This document shows, piece by piece, positions 26,101-38,300 of a stretch of DNA of 64,000 nt. The DNA lies in the NCBI RefSeq assembly GCF_963921235.1, contig NC_086109.1, positions 11,656,001 to 11,720,000 on the forward strand. The letters are read 5' to 3'. Position 1 is the first letter of the stretch. Every line of letters starts with the position of its first letter. This stretch comes from Mobula hypostoma. Lineage: Eukaryota. The notes beneath the pieces were generated by a model that made no database searches, was not told the origin of the DNA, and saw nothing but the letters and a program-made list of their open reading frames with translations. Position numbers and translations under genes: made by a program.

Positions 26101-29100
26101 TCACCTATATACATAGAGAAATACAGCACAGAAGCAGTACCTTCAGCCCATCTAGTCCATGCCATAAGACCATAAACCCATACACATGGGAGCAGAATTA
26201 GGCCATTTGGCCCATCGAGTCTGCTCTGTCATTCAATTATGGCTGATCCTTTTTTCCCCCTCCTCAACTCCACTGTCTAGCCTTCGCCCCATAACCTTTG
26301 ATGTTGTGTCCAATCAAGAACCTATCTAGCTCTGCCTTAAATACACCCAATGATTTAACCTCCGCAGCTGCCTGTGGTAATAAATTCCTCAAATTCACCA
26401 CCCTCTGGCCAAAGAAATTTCTCAGTACCTCTATTTTAAATGGACGCCCCGCTAGACTCTCCCACCATACGAAACATCCTTTCCACATCTACTCTGTCGA
26501 AAGGTTTCAATGAGATCCCCCCCCCACCATCCTTCTAAATTCCATTGAATACAGACCCAGACCTATCAAATGTTTCTCGTATGATAACCCTTTCATTCCC
26601 AGAATCATTCCCCTGAACCTCCTCTGAACCTTCTCCAGTGCCAGCACATCTTTTCTTAGATGCGGAGCCCAAACCTATTCACAATACTTAGGTTGAGGCC
26701 TCACCAGTGCTTTACAAAGCTTCACATCCCCGCTTTTGTGTTCTAGACCTCTTGAAATGAATGCTAACATTGCATTCGCCTTCCTCACCACTGACTCTAC
26801 CTGCAAGTTAACCTTTAGGGTGTTCTGTGCGAGGACTCCCAAGTGTCTTTGCATCTCAGATTTTTGGATTTCCTCCTGATTTAGAAAATAGTCTCAACAT
26901 TTATTTTCACTGACAAAGTGCATGACCATGCACTTTCCACATTGTATTTCATTTGCCACTCTCTTGCCCACTCTCCTAATCTGTCTAAGTCCTTCTTCAG
27001 CCAGCCTGTTTCCTCAACACTACCGTTGTTGAATGCCAAAACTATTTAAACTGCACATAATTGTTCTGTGAATTTTCCTGTAATTAAGGTGCAGTTGCTT
27101 CTGTATTTTTCTAGAAACTTCTTTGTTTGTAGAAGCAGGTGTCACGTCACCTGAATGTTGCTATTCTGGAGTTAGGGTATACGGCAGATTGGATTTAAAA
27201 AGCAGCTCAGAAAAATTAAACCTCAGATGCCTGAATGTGCATGAATGCTGCCTCGAGCCAGTGGATATTAACATTCATTTTGGGTGTCCGGAGTGTGGGT
27301 GCAAGGAAGGAGGTGTGTGACAAATATATGTAATTCAAAGGAAGCATTGTAGATACATTGTAACTGTAGAGTTGTTCCACTGTTACCTTTGATCTTTAGC
27401 CTATAAAAATGTCATGTAATATTGGGTTGGGAGACCTCTTCTTATGAGAGTGTTTCAATATGATGCCTGCTGCTCATTTGTTGAGTAAAAAAACTTCTAT
27501 CTCCACTGGATTCAGTGTCTTTCTGGTGGCTTTGTTCATGACACAACACTACTTTACAGGTTTTTTGACATCACCGGAATTTGCAGTTATCTGTAGTCTA
27601 GTATGAGACAACCACGACTAATTTTAGATTGTTTTCTGCTTTGTCTTTTCAGCACTTCTTTGTTTTGTTCTTCTTTGCTCTGGTAACATTTGATTAGATG
27701 GCTGTGAGTAGCAAGTTTTATGCTTCATTCTTGAACCACTGGATCTCAAAAGTAGTAGGATCCAATGAAGGCCATGATAGGGGTGTCTATACTTAGAGGG
27801 GTAAATGTTTAAGTCGAGAAGCAGGTGGTTCAAAGGGGATCCAGGTGCTAAACTTTTCACACAAAAAGCAGTTGGTATCTCGAATGAACTAGCAGAGAAG
27901 GTGTGAAGGAGAAACAGTGACAGTGATTAAGAGGCAGCTGGAAACATACCTGAATGAGCAGACACAGCAGAACATGGAAGTAATGCCAGCAAGTGGGGTT
28001 AGTTTAAGTAGGCATGATGGTAGGCGGTGGGCTAAAAAGTCTCCTTCTATACTGGACAACTTGATGGCTCTGTCACTCAATGAGACATTGCAACAAATTC
28101 TTCAAATGAAAAACAAGCACTTCCCCATTTCTGATGTTTCTGACAACTGTGTTTCACATTTTTTTTATTAGTGACCTGTGGTTTTAGTTTGAAATTTTCC
28201 TCTGCAGTATGTTGAGGAAGTACTGGGCGGCTTTCGTATACTAACCACCCCACCGAGAGCTAGCGTTCTGTTCCAGTAAAAGCTCAGTGAGTGATGATCT
28301 GGTCATCAAGTCAGCGCTAACTCCAGAAACCTGGGAACTGAGGGGGTGCTGTACTGAGGGAGCTCAGCACTGTTGCAGGTACTGACTGCCACGGCTGTCC
28401 TGGGCCCAACATATCGATGCAGCTACAAAGAAGGCATGACAGCAGCTATATTTCATTAGGAATTGGAGGTAATTTGGTGTGTTGCCAAAATCACTCAGAA
28501 ATTTCAATACATGTACAGTGGATAGCATTCTAACTGACTGCATCACTGTCTGATGTGGGGAGAGGTGCTACTGCACAGGATCAAAATAAGCCGCAGAGTT
28601 GTAAACTTAGTCAGCTCCATCATGGGCACTAGCCACAGCATCCACGACCTCTTCAAAGACTGGTGCTTCAAAAAGGTGGCATCCGTCATTAAGGACCCCC
28701 ATCACCCAGGGAATGCTCTCTTCTCATTGCTAACCTCAGGGACGATGTACAGAAGCCTGAAGGCACCCAATTAATAACTCAGGAACACCTTCTTCCTCTC
28801 TCCCATCCGATTTCTGAATGGACATTGAACTCATGAAGACCACCTCACTACTTTTTAAAAATTCTTATTTTTGCACTACTTATTTAATTTAACTACTAAT
28901 GAATAAATAAATAAATAAATATATATATCTCCTACAAATCCTACCTTGGCGCCTCACCATAGCGTAGGAGTGACACTGGCCGAACATCAGCGAAGCACGG
29001 CGGAGATTCGTTCTCTGGCAGGTCTAACCTAGCCGTGAAGGTGATGTTCCATCGGTATACTACTAGACTAGATCTAGTAGTAGGATCGTGGCTAGCTAAG

Positions 29101-32100
29101 TCAAGGAGGTAAGTCAGTATATATATCTACTGCAATACAGTTTTTTTCTTTTACTATGTATCGCATTGATCTGTTAAAACAAAGATAACAAATCACCGAC
29201 ATATGCTGGTGATGTTAAACCTGATTTTGGTTCTGATTCTGATTGATAAAACTTTTAGCTGAGCCACTCTCTGATCTTTCAAGTAACTGCAGAACGAGGG
29301 TAAATACAAGCAGGCTTTTTCTCCCGAGGTTGAGTGAGACTAGAACGAGAGGTCATAGGTTGAAAGTGAAAGGTGAAATATCTAAGGGGTAACTGAAGGC
29401 GATTTGCTTCATCAGAGGGTGGTAAAAGTGTGCTAGCAGAAGTAGTGGATGAGGTTCAATTGTAACATTGGGGAAGGTTTGGATAAGTGCATGGATGAGA
29501 GGGTGTGGAGGACGAACGTCTGGGTGCAGGTAGATGAGACTAGGCAGATAGAACAGATTGACATGGACTAGATAGGCTGGATGGACTGTTTCTTTGCTGT
29601 AGTAATCTCCGACTCTATCAAAGTAAATTTATTGTCAAAGTCAGCATATACTATCTTGAGATCATTATCTTGTAGGCTTTCACAACAGAACAAACAAGTA
29701 CAATAGAATTGATAAAAATCACCCCAAAGCAGAGACTGACAAACAACCAATGTGCAAAAGAAGACAACTTGTGCAAATACAATAAAAAGTGAATTACTAA
29801 ACAAATAAGCAAGTAAATAAATAAACAAACAGGTAAATGGATGAATACTTAAATAAATGAATAAATAAATAAAACAAAACAAAACCAAGTTGTAGAGTGG
29901 CTATGACTGGTGTTGTTTTGTACAAAAATATGTGACTGATTTGCGTTCCTAGACAAGAAGTATGCTACCGCTGTCATCCCCAAAGCTGACTTTCGCACAA
30001 ATGACCACATTGGCATTTGTGGGAGGTTGCTGTATACTAGTTGGTTTCTGGTTTTGCCACAACTACATGTGCTCATAACAATCACAGCAACAACAGCTTG
30101 CAATTACCCCTGGAGGACTCCTCTGTCAGCTCACATCATCCGGGCTACTTGCTAATAAGGTTAGTATCAGAATCGGGCTTGATATCACTGGCGTATGTCG
30201 TGAAACTTGTTGTTATGAGGCAATTCATAATAATAAAGACCGTGAATTATAGTAAGAAGTATATGTTTTTGAAGTTAAATTAAATAAGTAGTGCAAAAAG
30301 AGACAAAAAAAGATGTTCAATATCCATTCGGAAATCTTATGGCAGAGGGGAAGAAGCTGTTCCTGAATCATTGAGTGTGTGCCTTCAGGCTCCTGTACCT
30401 CCTCCCTGATGGTAATGGTGAGACGGGGGCATGTCCTGCGTTTGGTGGGTCATTAATGATGGATGCCGCCTTTTTGAAGTACCGCTCCTTGAAGATGTTA
30501 ACATTTGATGTAGCAATGTTTATCAAAATATATTAATTTATCTGATGTGAACCAGCAGAATGATTGTTCCCCTTGTTCTCGACTTACACCTCCTCTACCC
30601 TTCCATTTCTGCTGAATCACTCAGGGCCACACATTGTACTTGCGTGCAAATAAACCTTCCTCTTTCAGCGTAAAGCATCAGTTAATTGTGGCGTGGTGTG
30701 GGAACAATCCGTGGCTCTTCTAGCCATTTTACCATCGGCCAATCATGAACATGCTGGTCCACTTTTGTTTTGCCTGGATTGGTGTAGTTGCAGGAATGCT
30801 CCAAATTTTTAACATAGCTTGGTGGAACATTGTCTGCTTGACTTTGATCCCACCCACCACCACAATCATCCCGTTCCTGCGTAGTGACTGCAGACTCCTC
30901 AGAACGTATGTATTTACTTGTCTCGGCTCCCCCAGTTTCTCATGGGTTGCCATGGCATCATTGAGATATATATATATATACTTGTTTATTTACTGAGATA
31001 CAGTGTGGAATAGGCCCTTCCAGACCTTCAAACCTCTCCACTAAGCAATCCCCTGATTTAATCCTAGCCTAATCACGGGACAATTTACAATGATCAATTA
31101 ACTTACTGACTTTTACTGTCGTTGGGCTGGAGGAAACCCATGCAGTGCAAACTCCTTACAGGCAGCGACGGGAATTGAAACCTTTGATCACTGGTATTGT
31201 AAAGCACTGTGCTAAGCACTACGCTACCATGCCACCCCATACCACGACAGCATTGTGATCCCTACTGATGATTGATCCAACTCTCTCCTACCAATAATGG
31301 TAATGGTGGTCTGCTTTCCTTCTTCAATGTCAACCCCTGTCACTACACTTGGGTTCACAGGAAATCAGTCGATCATACAAAAGGTAGGAGGACTTGCCAT
31401 GAATGTTACAGGACTGAGGGAATATCTATGACTCTGTGTTTCAACTGTTAAAGGGCAGTTCAAATTGTAGGATTACAAGTACCCGGAGAAAGTAGCTACT
31501 GTTAAAAAACAGTCGTCCGTACTTGACATGGACACAAAGGGGGCAAGTGTATGGAACAGAGCTCTTGGGTTAAGATCAGAAATGGTGGAATCAGCTATAG
31601 AGGTTTGAGTGGGATAACTGAATGATAGATACTGCTTTAAATAGCCAAGAATGATAAGAATAACACATTTTGTGTTTCTATTTTGATTTTAAAAAACCTT
31701 GAAGGTGCACATCGGTATCGTTGTTTTGCCGCTTCCCAGCAAATCTGTCTGGAATATCTGAACCACATTTCAGCCAAATGAAGCAAAACAGTGTTGGGTA
31801 CATTGATAAGAAGAATCCTTAGAGTTATGGAAAGGATGTATGTTTGGGTGTCTGGCATGGAGATCTGGGTTCCAAGAGATGGGTAATATAACGATCATGG
31901 GCACAGGCAGGAATGTGTCACTCAGACAGAGAGATTGTCTCTGTGAGAGGTTCACCGCACCATCCACCCCCTGGCCCTCTGCCCCACACTTCTGTCTCAC
32001 TGTCCCCACCACCCTCCGCACTGAAACATGAACCTCCATCCCGCTGTCCCACGCCACTTGTCAAACTGAAACACACACACGCACCATCTCATTGCCCCAC

Positions 32101-35371: not shown

Positions 35372-38300
35372 CTGAAGAAATAGAAGACACTTTTCTAACC
35401 AACTCTTGGACTTGCAGTCAACAAACCCATACTGAGTCATTAAAGAGCAGCTATAATACTCTTGAAGACTCTTCAACCAGTATTTGGCTAGATGAGCTTA
35501 TCATTTTATTGATCATTCAACTATGAATGGGTTCATAAAGTAAATTGAACTGTAATTGGAGTCACTGGGCATTGGGCACAGTCACACTTTAACAAGAAGA
35601 TTGTTTACAATAGTATGATTGACTCAGTCAAAGGTGTTGCCAGCATATTCTATTTTTATAATATTAGACGTTTAATTGGATTCAGGTGTAGGTTCTGGTT
35701 GGACTTAGATTTTAATGTAAGAAAATAAATAATTAGCTTATTCCATTTTTAACACCAGATAAATAATCATTGGGAGATTGTAGCAGATACATGTTTATCA
35801 TCAGACATTAGATGTGGATTACTTACCCCAGAAGTAGTGACTGAATTAGTCTCTTCCCCAATGTATCTGAATCCTTTCTCACCTAAGCATGATGTAGAAA
35901 TACATTAGAGAGTTATGATTACAAATTAATACACGGAATCATTTGCAGTATACACCCAGTGGCCATTTTATTAGTTAAACCTGTATACCTCGTTAATGCA
36001 AATATTTAATTAGCCAATCATGTGGCAGCAACTTAATGCATAAAATCGTACAGACATAGTCAAAAGGACAGACTAAACATCAGAATGGGGAAGAAATGTG
36101 ATTTGAGTGACTTTGACTGTGAAATGATTGTTGGCGCCAGACAGGGTGGTTTGGGTATCTCAGAAACTGCTGATCTCCTGGGATTTTCACTCACAACAGT
36201 CTTAAAAGTTTGTAGAGCATGTTGTGAAAACAAAAGCATCCAGTGAGCATCAGTTCTGTGGGCAAGAACACCTTGTTAATGAGAGAGGTCGGAGGAGAAT
36301 GGCCAGACTGGTTCAAGCTGACAGGAAGGTAACAGTTACTCAAATAACCGCGCTTTACCACTGTGGTGGACAGAAGAGCTTCTCTGAATGTACAACACGT
36401 TGAATGTTAAAGTGGATGGGCTACAGCAACAAAAGGTAATGATTATTAGGTACTGTACCTCCTGTACCTAATAAAATGAACACCAAATGTGTATTCTAAG
36501 GAAAAATTATCTTAAGTGTATTGCAGCAGACAAATCTACTAAAACGTAACATCTTTACTTCAAATTGTTAAAAGTTAAATAATTTATTATCAAAAGATTT
36601 CTCTTTGCAACATCTATAAGCGTACAGAATAATATGACACAAAGGACTGTAGCTTTAAGGTGTCAGTGTGACTTTAATTCACCATTGTGTAAGTGGTTCA
36701 ATGATCCAATTGAATCCCACACCCATTTAACAGGGGCTTGCAAAAGCATTTGAATTGTTGGTATTGATTTAATAATTTAGTAAATGGATAATTGAACCAT
36801 AAGGATTGACTTGGATGAATTTCATATACAGAACCAATCTTCCAACTCTAATCCGCTTGGAACGTCATGTTACATTGTCCTTTCGCATACTTGTATCTTG
36901 TGTGTGCTGCATTGTATATTGTTTGCTTTCTATGGCTTGATTTACATCTGTAATGCCAGTGCATATTCTTATTCATTGTTTCGACTGTTTACTGCTGCTC
37001 TCGAGATTCCTGCAGGTGTCAGCTGGGGCTCCGTTGGTAACACTGCGAACTAGAGATTGTGGGTTCGAATCCCACTGTGAGGATCTGAGCACAAAGATCT
37101 TGCCTGACAATTCAGTGTGGAACTTAGGCAGTAAATTAATGAAGATGCTATCAGTAACTTAGGTTTTATCTGTCCTTTCTGAAGAATGTAGGAAGGTTGT
37201 GGAAGGGGAATATTTCTTGTCATTTGATGAACAAAAGTTGTAAACTTAATCAGCTCCATCATGGGTACTAGCCTCAGTAATGCCCAAGACATCTCAAGGA
37301 CTGGTATCTTAAAGGTGGCATCCATTGTTAAGGACCCCCACCACCCAGCACATGCCCTCTTCTCATTGTTACCATCAGGGAAGAGGTACAGAAGCCTGAA
37401 GGCACGCACTCAGCGATTCAGGAACAGTTTCTTCCCCTCTGCTATCTGATTTCTGAATGGACATTGAATCCTTGAACACTACCTCACTACTTTTTTTATT
37501 TCTATTTTTGCACTGCTTGTTTAATTTATTTAATATACATATATACTCACTGTAATTCAGTTTCTTTACTATATTATCATCTATGCAATGTTCTGCTGCC
37601 ACTAAGCTAACACATTTCACAACATATGACAGTGATATTAAACCTGATTCTGATTCTGACATGAATCATTCCACTAACTTTATGGAAGGTGCAGATAGTT
37701 GGATCATTTACACATCCTGTCTGTTTTCACATTGTCCACATCCAACACACATCAAAATATGTTTTTGTTGTGTGATACACTTTCAGCATTTTTCCAAAGT
37801 TTAGTACTTGCTTTATTTATTGGCATTGGGATTGTGCTGATATAAACTGTGTTGCAAATCATCATTCTTGACAATACCGATATTTCTCCAAGCACCAAAG
37901 GAGAGAAAAAAAAAGATTTATTTGTCACACAGACATTGAAACATTCGGGTATTCAGTGAAATGCACGGCTTGCAGCAACTCAGGTCAGCTAGGATTGTGC
38001 TGGAGGCATCTCACAATTGTCACCACATAGCATAGCCACAACTTACTAAACCTAACTGTTTGTCACTGGAATGTAGGAGGAAACTGGAGCACCTGGAAGA
38101 AACCCATGTGGACATGAGGTGAACGAACAAACCTTAGAAAGTCTCCTTGCAGACAGCAGCAGGAATCAAAACCTGACCGGCGTGCTAAATGCTGCTCTAC
38201 TGTGTCACTACTTTTTGGTAGTGTGATAGATTTTCAATATTTCCAAATTTTAATACCTGTTTTAATTATTGGCATCATGTGTTTTGCTGATATAAACTAT

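Follow-up and report, generated by a model that had tools for sequence, protein, structure and literature searches.

The insertion described here lies in a window of 64,000 nucleotides (nt) from Mobula hypostoma (assembly GCF_963921235.1, contig NC_086109.1, positions 11,656,001 to 11,720,000 of the forward strand). [quoted passage not shown] A preliminary description, made from the letters of the sequence, had presented the same segment as an unclassified, self-contained unit of 188 bp. It is instead explained as a degraded piece from the 5′ end of an RTE LINE, a clade for which such a ribozyme arrangement has already been reported.

Comparison with other loci in the same genome identifies the insert as the head of a dispersed family. 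Its GC content of 0.51 and its ratio of observed to expected CpG (0.82) stand out against values of 0.24 and 0.47 for the 500 bp on either side and a GC content of 0.31 for the window, in line with the initial remark that a CpG-rich segment sits in AT-rich surroundings. The insert also folds beyond dinucleotide shuffles, with z-scores of -3.56 for plus-strand RNA, -2.34 for minus-strand RNA and -4.14 for DNA. The direct repeat reported on both sides is real and measures 11 rather than 10 bp, overlapping the start of the insert by 2 nt. The supposed 188-bp unit resolves into an element part of 185 nt and a filler of 4 nt, and other loci continue in the 3′ direction. The window copy ends at nt 186 of the element and has no tail; beyond that point, 28 of the 29 other best-matching loci extend by hundreds of bases, and L007 carries the remainder in inverted orientation. 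The filler is likely the product of a template slip that copied the end of P2′, and the outer end of L109 has a similar slip-like filler. Both the tandem taagtca motif and the apparent splice donor noted at the right end exist because of this filler: the AG/GTAAGT sequence is there, but it was made at the junction, and the parent element reads GGTAAGC at that point.

The own-genome search gave at least 41 matches at 87-100% identity, 40 of 114 candidates having been scored; the 185 nt are 92-96% identical to 40 other matches. The 15-nt J4/2-P2′ motif near the insert's end has 77 exact matches vs 3 for a control, and the family is for this reason estimated at the order of a hundred copies, as a lower bound. 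Ninety loci, namely the 30 best matches, 8 that other searches had supplied and a further 52 fetched afresh, were mapped onto the 5′ untranslated region (UTR) and the 3′ terminus of a long copy; removal of 4 loci without the element and of 2 identical duplicates of L118 left 84. The duplicates belong to L118, L119 and L120, which have identical flanks, constitute a segmental duplication and were counted once. Among the 84 loci, 57 are bipartite, 11 are long, 11 lack an adjacent tail and 5 have an inverted 5′ part. In the bipartite copies, which are about 550 bp long and have no open reading frame (ORF), some 508 nt of the 5′ UTR are joined to the final 38 nt with their (GAA)n tail. An exact flank repeat of at least 8 bp is found in 16 of 47 bipartite copies (null mean 0.7, maximum 3). 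The 5′ edge falls on base 1 in 32 of the 79 non-inverted loci, within bases 1-3 in 43 and within bases 1-16 in 66, and 13 are truncated at nt 30-162; this count includes the first 30 loci, which were chosen for covering this stretch. At least four other organisms also have the family, and there too loose ends fall on its first base and on the internal junction. No RNA data set is among its listed carriers; pieces of the family occur as contigs in four sequencing runs presumed to be RNA, which speaks neither for nor against expression. The copies differ by 3.5% outside CpG sites and appear star-like, decaying neutrally from one source. Divergence is equal in long and short copies, which have few diagnostic changes in common (exceptions are L002/L005 and L114/L115). 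A literature search of limited reach, and hence weak as evidence, returned nothing published on this family and no account of ribozyme-only RTE insertions.

Three loci extend into one element of about 4 kb that has received later insertions. This parent consists of an 868-nt 5′ UTR, a single broken endonuclease-reverse transcriptase (RT) frame, a short 3′ UTR and the same tail, the (GAA)n repeat lying about 50 nt past the stop. Pfam assigns RVT_1 to the frame (E 4e-21) and, at its start, Exo_endo_phos (E 3e-5, just under the cut-off); the 868-nt UTR holds no long upstream ORF. The top full-length homologues are mostly of about 1,050 amino acids; an endonuclease and an RT domain are listed for them, and no RNase H domain, and the parent protein presumably resembles RTE/BovB proteins. 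A single ORF with an N-terminal APE endonuclease and an RT, no ORF1 and no RNase H, together with TSDs and a short 3′ UTR that closes with a tandem repeat of short units, is the layout of RTE elements. The parent is accordingly labelled, by architecture instead of by a tree or a repeat library, as a putative RTE-type LINE, a label under which a Vingi element would formally still be admissible. The insert thus matches, in substance, the end of a known type of transposable element, the outcome that the preliminary description had named as incompatible with its own view. An opposite, minus-strand reading with a GTAGGA tail was dropped, as the (GAA)n tail and the ORF lie on the plus strand.

The 185 nt are a candidate HDV-like self-cleaving ribozyme that sits on the family's 5′ edge. 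The fold sought was a five-helix nested double pseudoknot with a P1 of 7 bp, a P2 of at least 5 bp, a P3 of 3 bp, P1.1 and P4, and its predicted parts in the window copy are listed in Table 1. Over 30 copies, 94% of the cells are paired when all helices are taken together. Moreover, P1 starts at the modal 5′ edge of the family, the position expected of the cleavage site, and the same edge recurs in four other organisms. With P1 placed at the element start, 5 of 43 copies with full 5′ ends pass the strict descriptor and 10 pass a relaxed form; the strict descriptor gave one match in 40 shuffled 64-kb windows, equivalent to about 0.4 chance matches per Mb. The predicted catalytic C is kept in 45 of 50 copies, the CG of L3 (a CpG) is intact in 30 and the entire core in 17. 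In addition, the Rfam HDV-F-prausnitzii model (RF02682) aligns, unprompted, from base 1 of copy L002 (15 bits, E 3.6; cut-off 44). The five stems named in the preliminary description are all in place with zero mismatches; the one at 28929-35/28964-70 is P1, and the insertion in P4 holds those at 28982-89/29042-49 and 28996-29001/29032-37, two small hairpins and the 10-bp hairpin at 29058-82.

Table 1. Predicted and observed features of the insert and its surroundings (window coordinates)
Feature	Position	Strand	Basis or remark
Host: 3′ end of an unrelated, older LINE	28590..29245 (approximate ends)	+	aligns with 37235-37670
TSD, left copy, 11 bp	28920..28930	+	last 2 nt are the first 2 nt of the element
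RTE-type LINE 5′ end, 185 nt, predicted HDV-like ribozyme domain	28929..29113	+	family matches, family 5′ edge
P1, 5′ strand; predicted cleavage directly 5′ of 28929	28929..28935	+	7/7 pairs with 28964-28970; descriptor
J1/2, one A fewer than in most copies	28936..28943	+	alignment
P2, 5′ strand	28944..28950	+	pairs with 29100-29106; 96% of cells paired, 30 copies
P3-L3-P3′ core	28951..28963	+	P3 28951-53/28961-63, L3 28954-60
P1, 3′ strand (28964-70) and P1.1, 3′ strand (28971-72, pairs with 28955-56)	28964..28972	+	
P4 (28976-81/29090-95) enclosing a 108-nt branched insertion	28976..29095	+	folding, alignment
J4/2, predicted catalytic C at 29096	29096..29099	+	descriptor; C in 45/50 copies parsed
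P2, 3′ strand; end of the ribozyme fold	29100..29106	+	
4-nt filler	29114..29117	+	absent from the parent; putative origin in text
TSD, right copy, 11 bp	29118..29128	+	

The window copy itself has decayed. A replaces the family G at two core positions, 28959, which is the conserved G of L3, and 28961, where one P3 pair is broken. An R2 ribozyme without the L3 G was inactive (PMC3774820). Any ribozyme activity of the window copy has likely been lost since its insertion. As to the wider distribution of the fold, a variant in a second RTE family of the same genome has a canonical HDV-like core in which P3, P1.1 and P2 are different yet paired (two loci). These loci, L129 (reverse strand, about 681-840) and L128, show a 10-bp P2, P3, L3, a 2-bp P1.1, a short P4 and a P1 with one mismatch. 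A metagenome scan for distant relatives gave two distant RTE loci and no descriptor match.

Several observations weigh against the ribozyme assignment and the family label. The core pattern of the descriptor is general background on HDV-like ribozymes, and the window copy fails the strict descriptor, which has 0 matches in the window. In Rfam, neither the window copy nor L002 has a match at gathering level. Covariation in the aligned copies, which the preliminary description had put forward as a check, does not exceed that in shuffles: 2 pairs show two-sided changes vs 3.4 in shuffles, and the score was reached by 241 of 500. This test, run on the 30-copy alignment, has little power since the copies are star-like and decay neutrally with 3.5% non-CpG divergence. 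Of 42 copies, 28 begin with C; ribozymes of the HDV/CPEB3 type have G at this position, and L1Tc starts with C. The P4 region is long (123 nt), the core in the sister family has a P1 with one mismatch and is known from two loci only, and RTE membership is based on architecture and not on a tree with named references.

The absence of covariation, the sub-threshold Rfam score, the C at position 1 and the long P4 would also suit a structured UTR, promoter or IRES (internal ribosome entry site)-like, that resembles an HDV ribozyme without cleaving and owes its sharp 5′ edge to an internal promoter. In L1Tc, the first 77 nt double as a promoter, as stated in the section of PMC3383444 consulted. What makes a non-cleaving UTR very unlikely is that five helices, the L3 pattern and the C-N-R-A of J4/2 all coincide at the exact terminus of the element, against the low rate of chance matches given above, and that RTE elements with such ribozymes have been reported in the portions of PMC5786205 and PMC6765202 used here. 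Promoter and ribozyme functions are, besides, compatible with each other.

[quoted passage not shown] It differs in that cleavage is predicted here and that the window copy has decayed. In R2, the domain occupies the first ~184 nt (as given in the excerpt of PMC6765202), and here likewise about 180 nt. Most R2 ribozymes lengthen J1/2, and their P4 is highly variable (both from the accessible text of PMC3774820), whereas the length here resides in the branched 123-nt P4 region and J1/2 has 10 nt. The preliminary description had suggested a retroposed structured RNA resembling a ribozyme or a retrozyme. This was right in kind, as the insert fits an HDV-like fold and was inserted by retrotransposition; the retrozyme-like unit gives way to the 5′ end of an RTE-type LINE. 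Neither of the catalytic cores that characterize retrozymes, hammerhead or hairpin, was found: there is no Rfam match to a hammerhead ribozyme at E values up to 10, and a hairpin ribozyme was rejected as a candidate at 14.8 bits vs a cut-off of 65 (E 4.5), with only the 5′ part aligned.

How a tail-less copy could have formed is suggested by the inverted copies of the family. The parent RNA was likely made by read-through transcription, and the ribozyme would cut it before base 1 and thereby define its 5′ end, as judged from the precedents of R2, L1Tc and RTE. The endonuclease-RT protein would then copy the RNA starting at the (GAA)n tail. In the event that gave rise to the window copy, priming from the second nick likely took place within the RNA, near nt 186, and copying proceeded back to base 1; if the tail-primed strand contributed next to nothing, the ribozyme domain alone would be left between the duplicated target bases. 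A twin-priming layout is seen at five loci (L007, L028, L082, L105 and L109), the internal ends of which lie at nt 183, 185, 204, 353 and 396. Two of the inverted copies were examined for TSDs, and these are exact, 11 and 10 bp. In three of the five, the priming point falls at nt 183-204, a short way 3′ of the ribozyme. The polarity of the TSD provides a further indication: in bipartite copies with TSDs of at least 8 bp, the duplication starts with a purine beside the tail in 19 of 20, and the TSD of the window copy starts with T in the ordinary geometry and with AGA, which matches the tail, in the twin-priming geometry. Because inverted copies end near nt 186 and the TSD polarity fits, twin priming just 3′ of the ribozyme is the most likely origin of the window copy, as judged from the sequence. 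Two qualifications count on the other side. The rule that TSDs start with a purine follows in part from the (GAA)n tail itself, into which a match may extend; the hotspot at nt 183-204 comprises 3 of 5 events in a window drawn post hoc.

An insertion of an ordinary ~550-bp or 4-kb copy, followed by a deletion past nt 186 and end joining with a 4-nt templated filler, would lead to the same arrangement. Short templated fillers are typical of end-joining repair, TA tracts are presumably fragile, and later insertions or breaks account for the missing tail of other copies (L014, L017, L022 and L087, the last of which likewise ends near nt 188 and was cut by another element). In this scenario, however, the deletion must have halted exactly at the TSD, as the 11-bp duplication is intact and not one tail base is left. 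The three inverted copies that end at nt 183-204 and the TSD polarity, which fits the twin-priming geometry better, argue in the same direction, so that later deletion is an unlikely source of the window copy. The original alternative was a lone 188-bp element that targets microsatellites and owes its integration to a recombinase, the 10-mer serving as crossover core, or else a unit of retrozyme type. It drew on the position in a short TA tract and on the direct repeat on both sides. We now give it a negligible probability. The form of the window copy occurs at only 1 of 84 loci, and this census of the family refutes such a unit. A search for a family of ribozyme-only copies by the pattern of divergence at the same base yielded 4 loci, 3 of them ordinary point variants. 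There is no constant core repeat, no fixed pair of ends and no shared target. The repeated 10/11-mer is present, as inspected by eye, at none of the other loci listed; one of these, L100, has a short TA run nearby. The flank repeats differ from locus to locus, and for this reason the direct repeat is regarded as a TSD and not as a recombinase core; the family has an endonuclease-RT parent and a (GAA)n tail, and the hairpin-ribozyme score falls far below its cut-off.

In primate L1, Meyer et al. (2010, PMC2837659) described twin-primed insertions whose non-inverted part is unusually short. These share with the window copy an internally primed piece between TSDs and little or nothing from the tail-primed strand. 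The L1 cases keep a poly(T) remnant, whereas the remnant here, in an RTE element, is only a 3-nt match inside the TSD, and the priming point lies 3′ of the ribozyme. Another tail-less copy was observed at L003:1501-2016 (also at L073); it stops at nt 516, carries an A-rich filler and has a TSD of 12 bp. It suggests that direct copying is possible for a 5′ piece of the RNA whose end lies near the junction hotspot of the bipartite copies.

The bipartite copies differ in how their two parts are joined. By hand count, there are about 31 junction forms among the 57 copies (for example, L002:2009-2013, L011:2008-2009 and L091:1038-1048); an automatic count, which gave 37 forms in 48 parsed copies with 9 unparsed, over-counts substitutions and was not used. 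One hotspot accounts for 44 of the 57, in which 5′ nt 507-510 are joined to the same two tail positions, often through A-rich fillers of varying length. For three of the long copies, nt 505-541 are predicted to pair with the 43 nt that precede the tail at -31.7 to -35.5 kcal/mol, and this 5′-3′ helix closes at the hotspot. It ranks 1 of 775, 2 of 760 and 1 of 505 overlapping windows, and 0-1 of 500 shuffles were as good; the three copies are not independent, and the helix windows were picked from the junction. In contrast to the bipartite copies, a short interspersed nuclear element (SINE) with the same tail has one fixed junction in 96 of 100 copies listed, out of 169 matches. This SINE, of about 290 bp (L130-L149), combines a tRNA-like head (by eye) and a body resembling the 5′ UTR of another RTE element with the same 38-nt tail, and it is likely the partner SINE of this LINE. 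The comparison of some 31 junction forms in 57 copies with 96 of 100 identical junctions in the SINE suggests that the short bipartite copies were formed repeatedly and de novo by RT jumps across the predicted helix.

ORF-less bipartite LINEs are described in the passages of PMC5786205 and PMC3414825 available for the RTE, Ingi, Vingi and R2 clades, with Bov-A, RTESINE, WALLSI3, NARTc and the R2 SIDEs as examples. The same 5′ UTR, including the ribozyme, joined to the extreme 3′ end between TSDs is found here in 57 of 84 loci. A bipartite family derived from a master has a fixed junction, as opposed to the ~31 forms in 57 copies seen here. The window copy differs again, as it comprises the 5′ head only and, with the tail absent, is not mobilisable as such an element.

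A tentative extension, which we hold to be possible and less probable than its opposite, is that the RTE RNA acts as one folded machine. The single-stranded linker 3′ of the ribozyme would be a hotspot for priming of the second strand and would give rise to ribozyme-only insertions such as the window copy, the helix of nt 505-541 would drive a jump of the RT across the ORF, and bipartite copies would arise anew with no single master. A protein-bound boundary at a conserved motif of the 5′ UTR could set the junction equally well. In the sister RTE family there is no clear top-ranked helix, with 5′ UTR windows ranking 3rd to 6th of ~810 in some settings, and two predicted bipartite junctions have 0 matches vs 120 intact sites. 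If true, the folded-machine model would explain why bipartite elements and SINE tails of RTE-type LINEs are frequent, and retrotransposons could scatter bare ribozymes across a vertebrate genome.

The family provides a candidate HDV-like ribozyme from a vertebrate. This candidate, missed by Rfam, has a long and branched P4, and both intact and decayed copies of it occur naturally. The junction data bear on why only RTE, Ingi/Vingi and R2 form ORF-less bipartite elements, a restriction that the text seen of PMC5786205 ascribes to "unknown reasons". RTE-1 and Vingi are under development as UTR-dependent gene-writing tools (PMC13708176, in the part consulted), and a structure-driven route of deletion, if true, would matter for them.

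The host of the insert is the 3′ end of an unrelated LINE, the short TA tract of which took the insert. The related tail at 37235-37670 aligns with it and has no insert, in agreement with what had been noted near 37540. Both copies have a tail of the ATTCTG type, and in both the end of the ORF is broken. A Pfam search of the host LINE gave no match, and its resemblance to the C-terminus of Rex1/Babar is presumed.

Other RTE-type elements were encountered in the genome. A second, more numerous family with an (ACA)n tail (L042, L044, L046-L058, L060-L067, L124-L126 and L129) has several alternative 5′ ends, and one motif of its 5′ UTR has 120 exact matches. L127 represents a third RTE-type family, at 68% identity. 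At L054:352-519 (plus strand), and also at L065 and L061, some copies of the second family have at their 5′ ends a captured coding fragment that belongs to the glyoxalase superfamily (Glyoxalase_4, E 5e-8) and presumably resembles methylmalonyl-CoA epimerase; this fragment would represent 5′ capture of a host mRNA.

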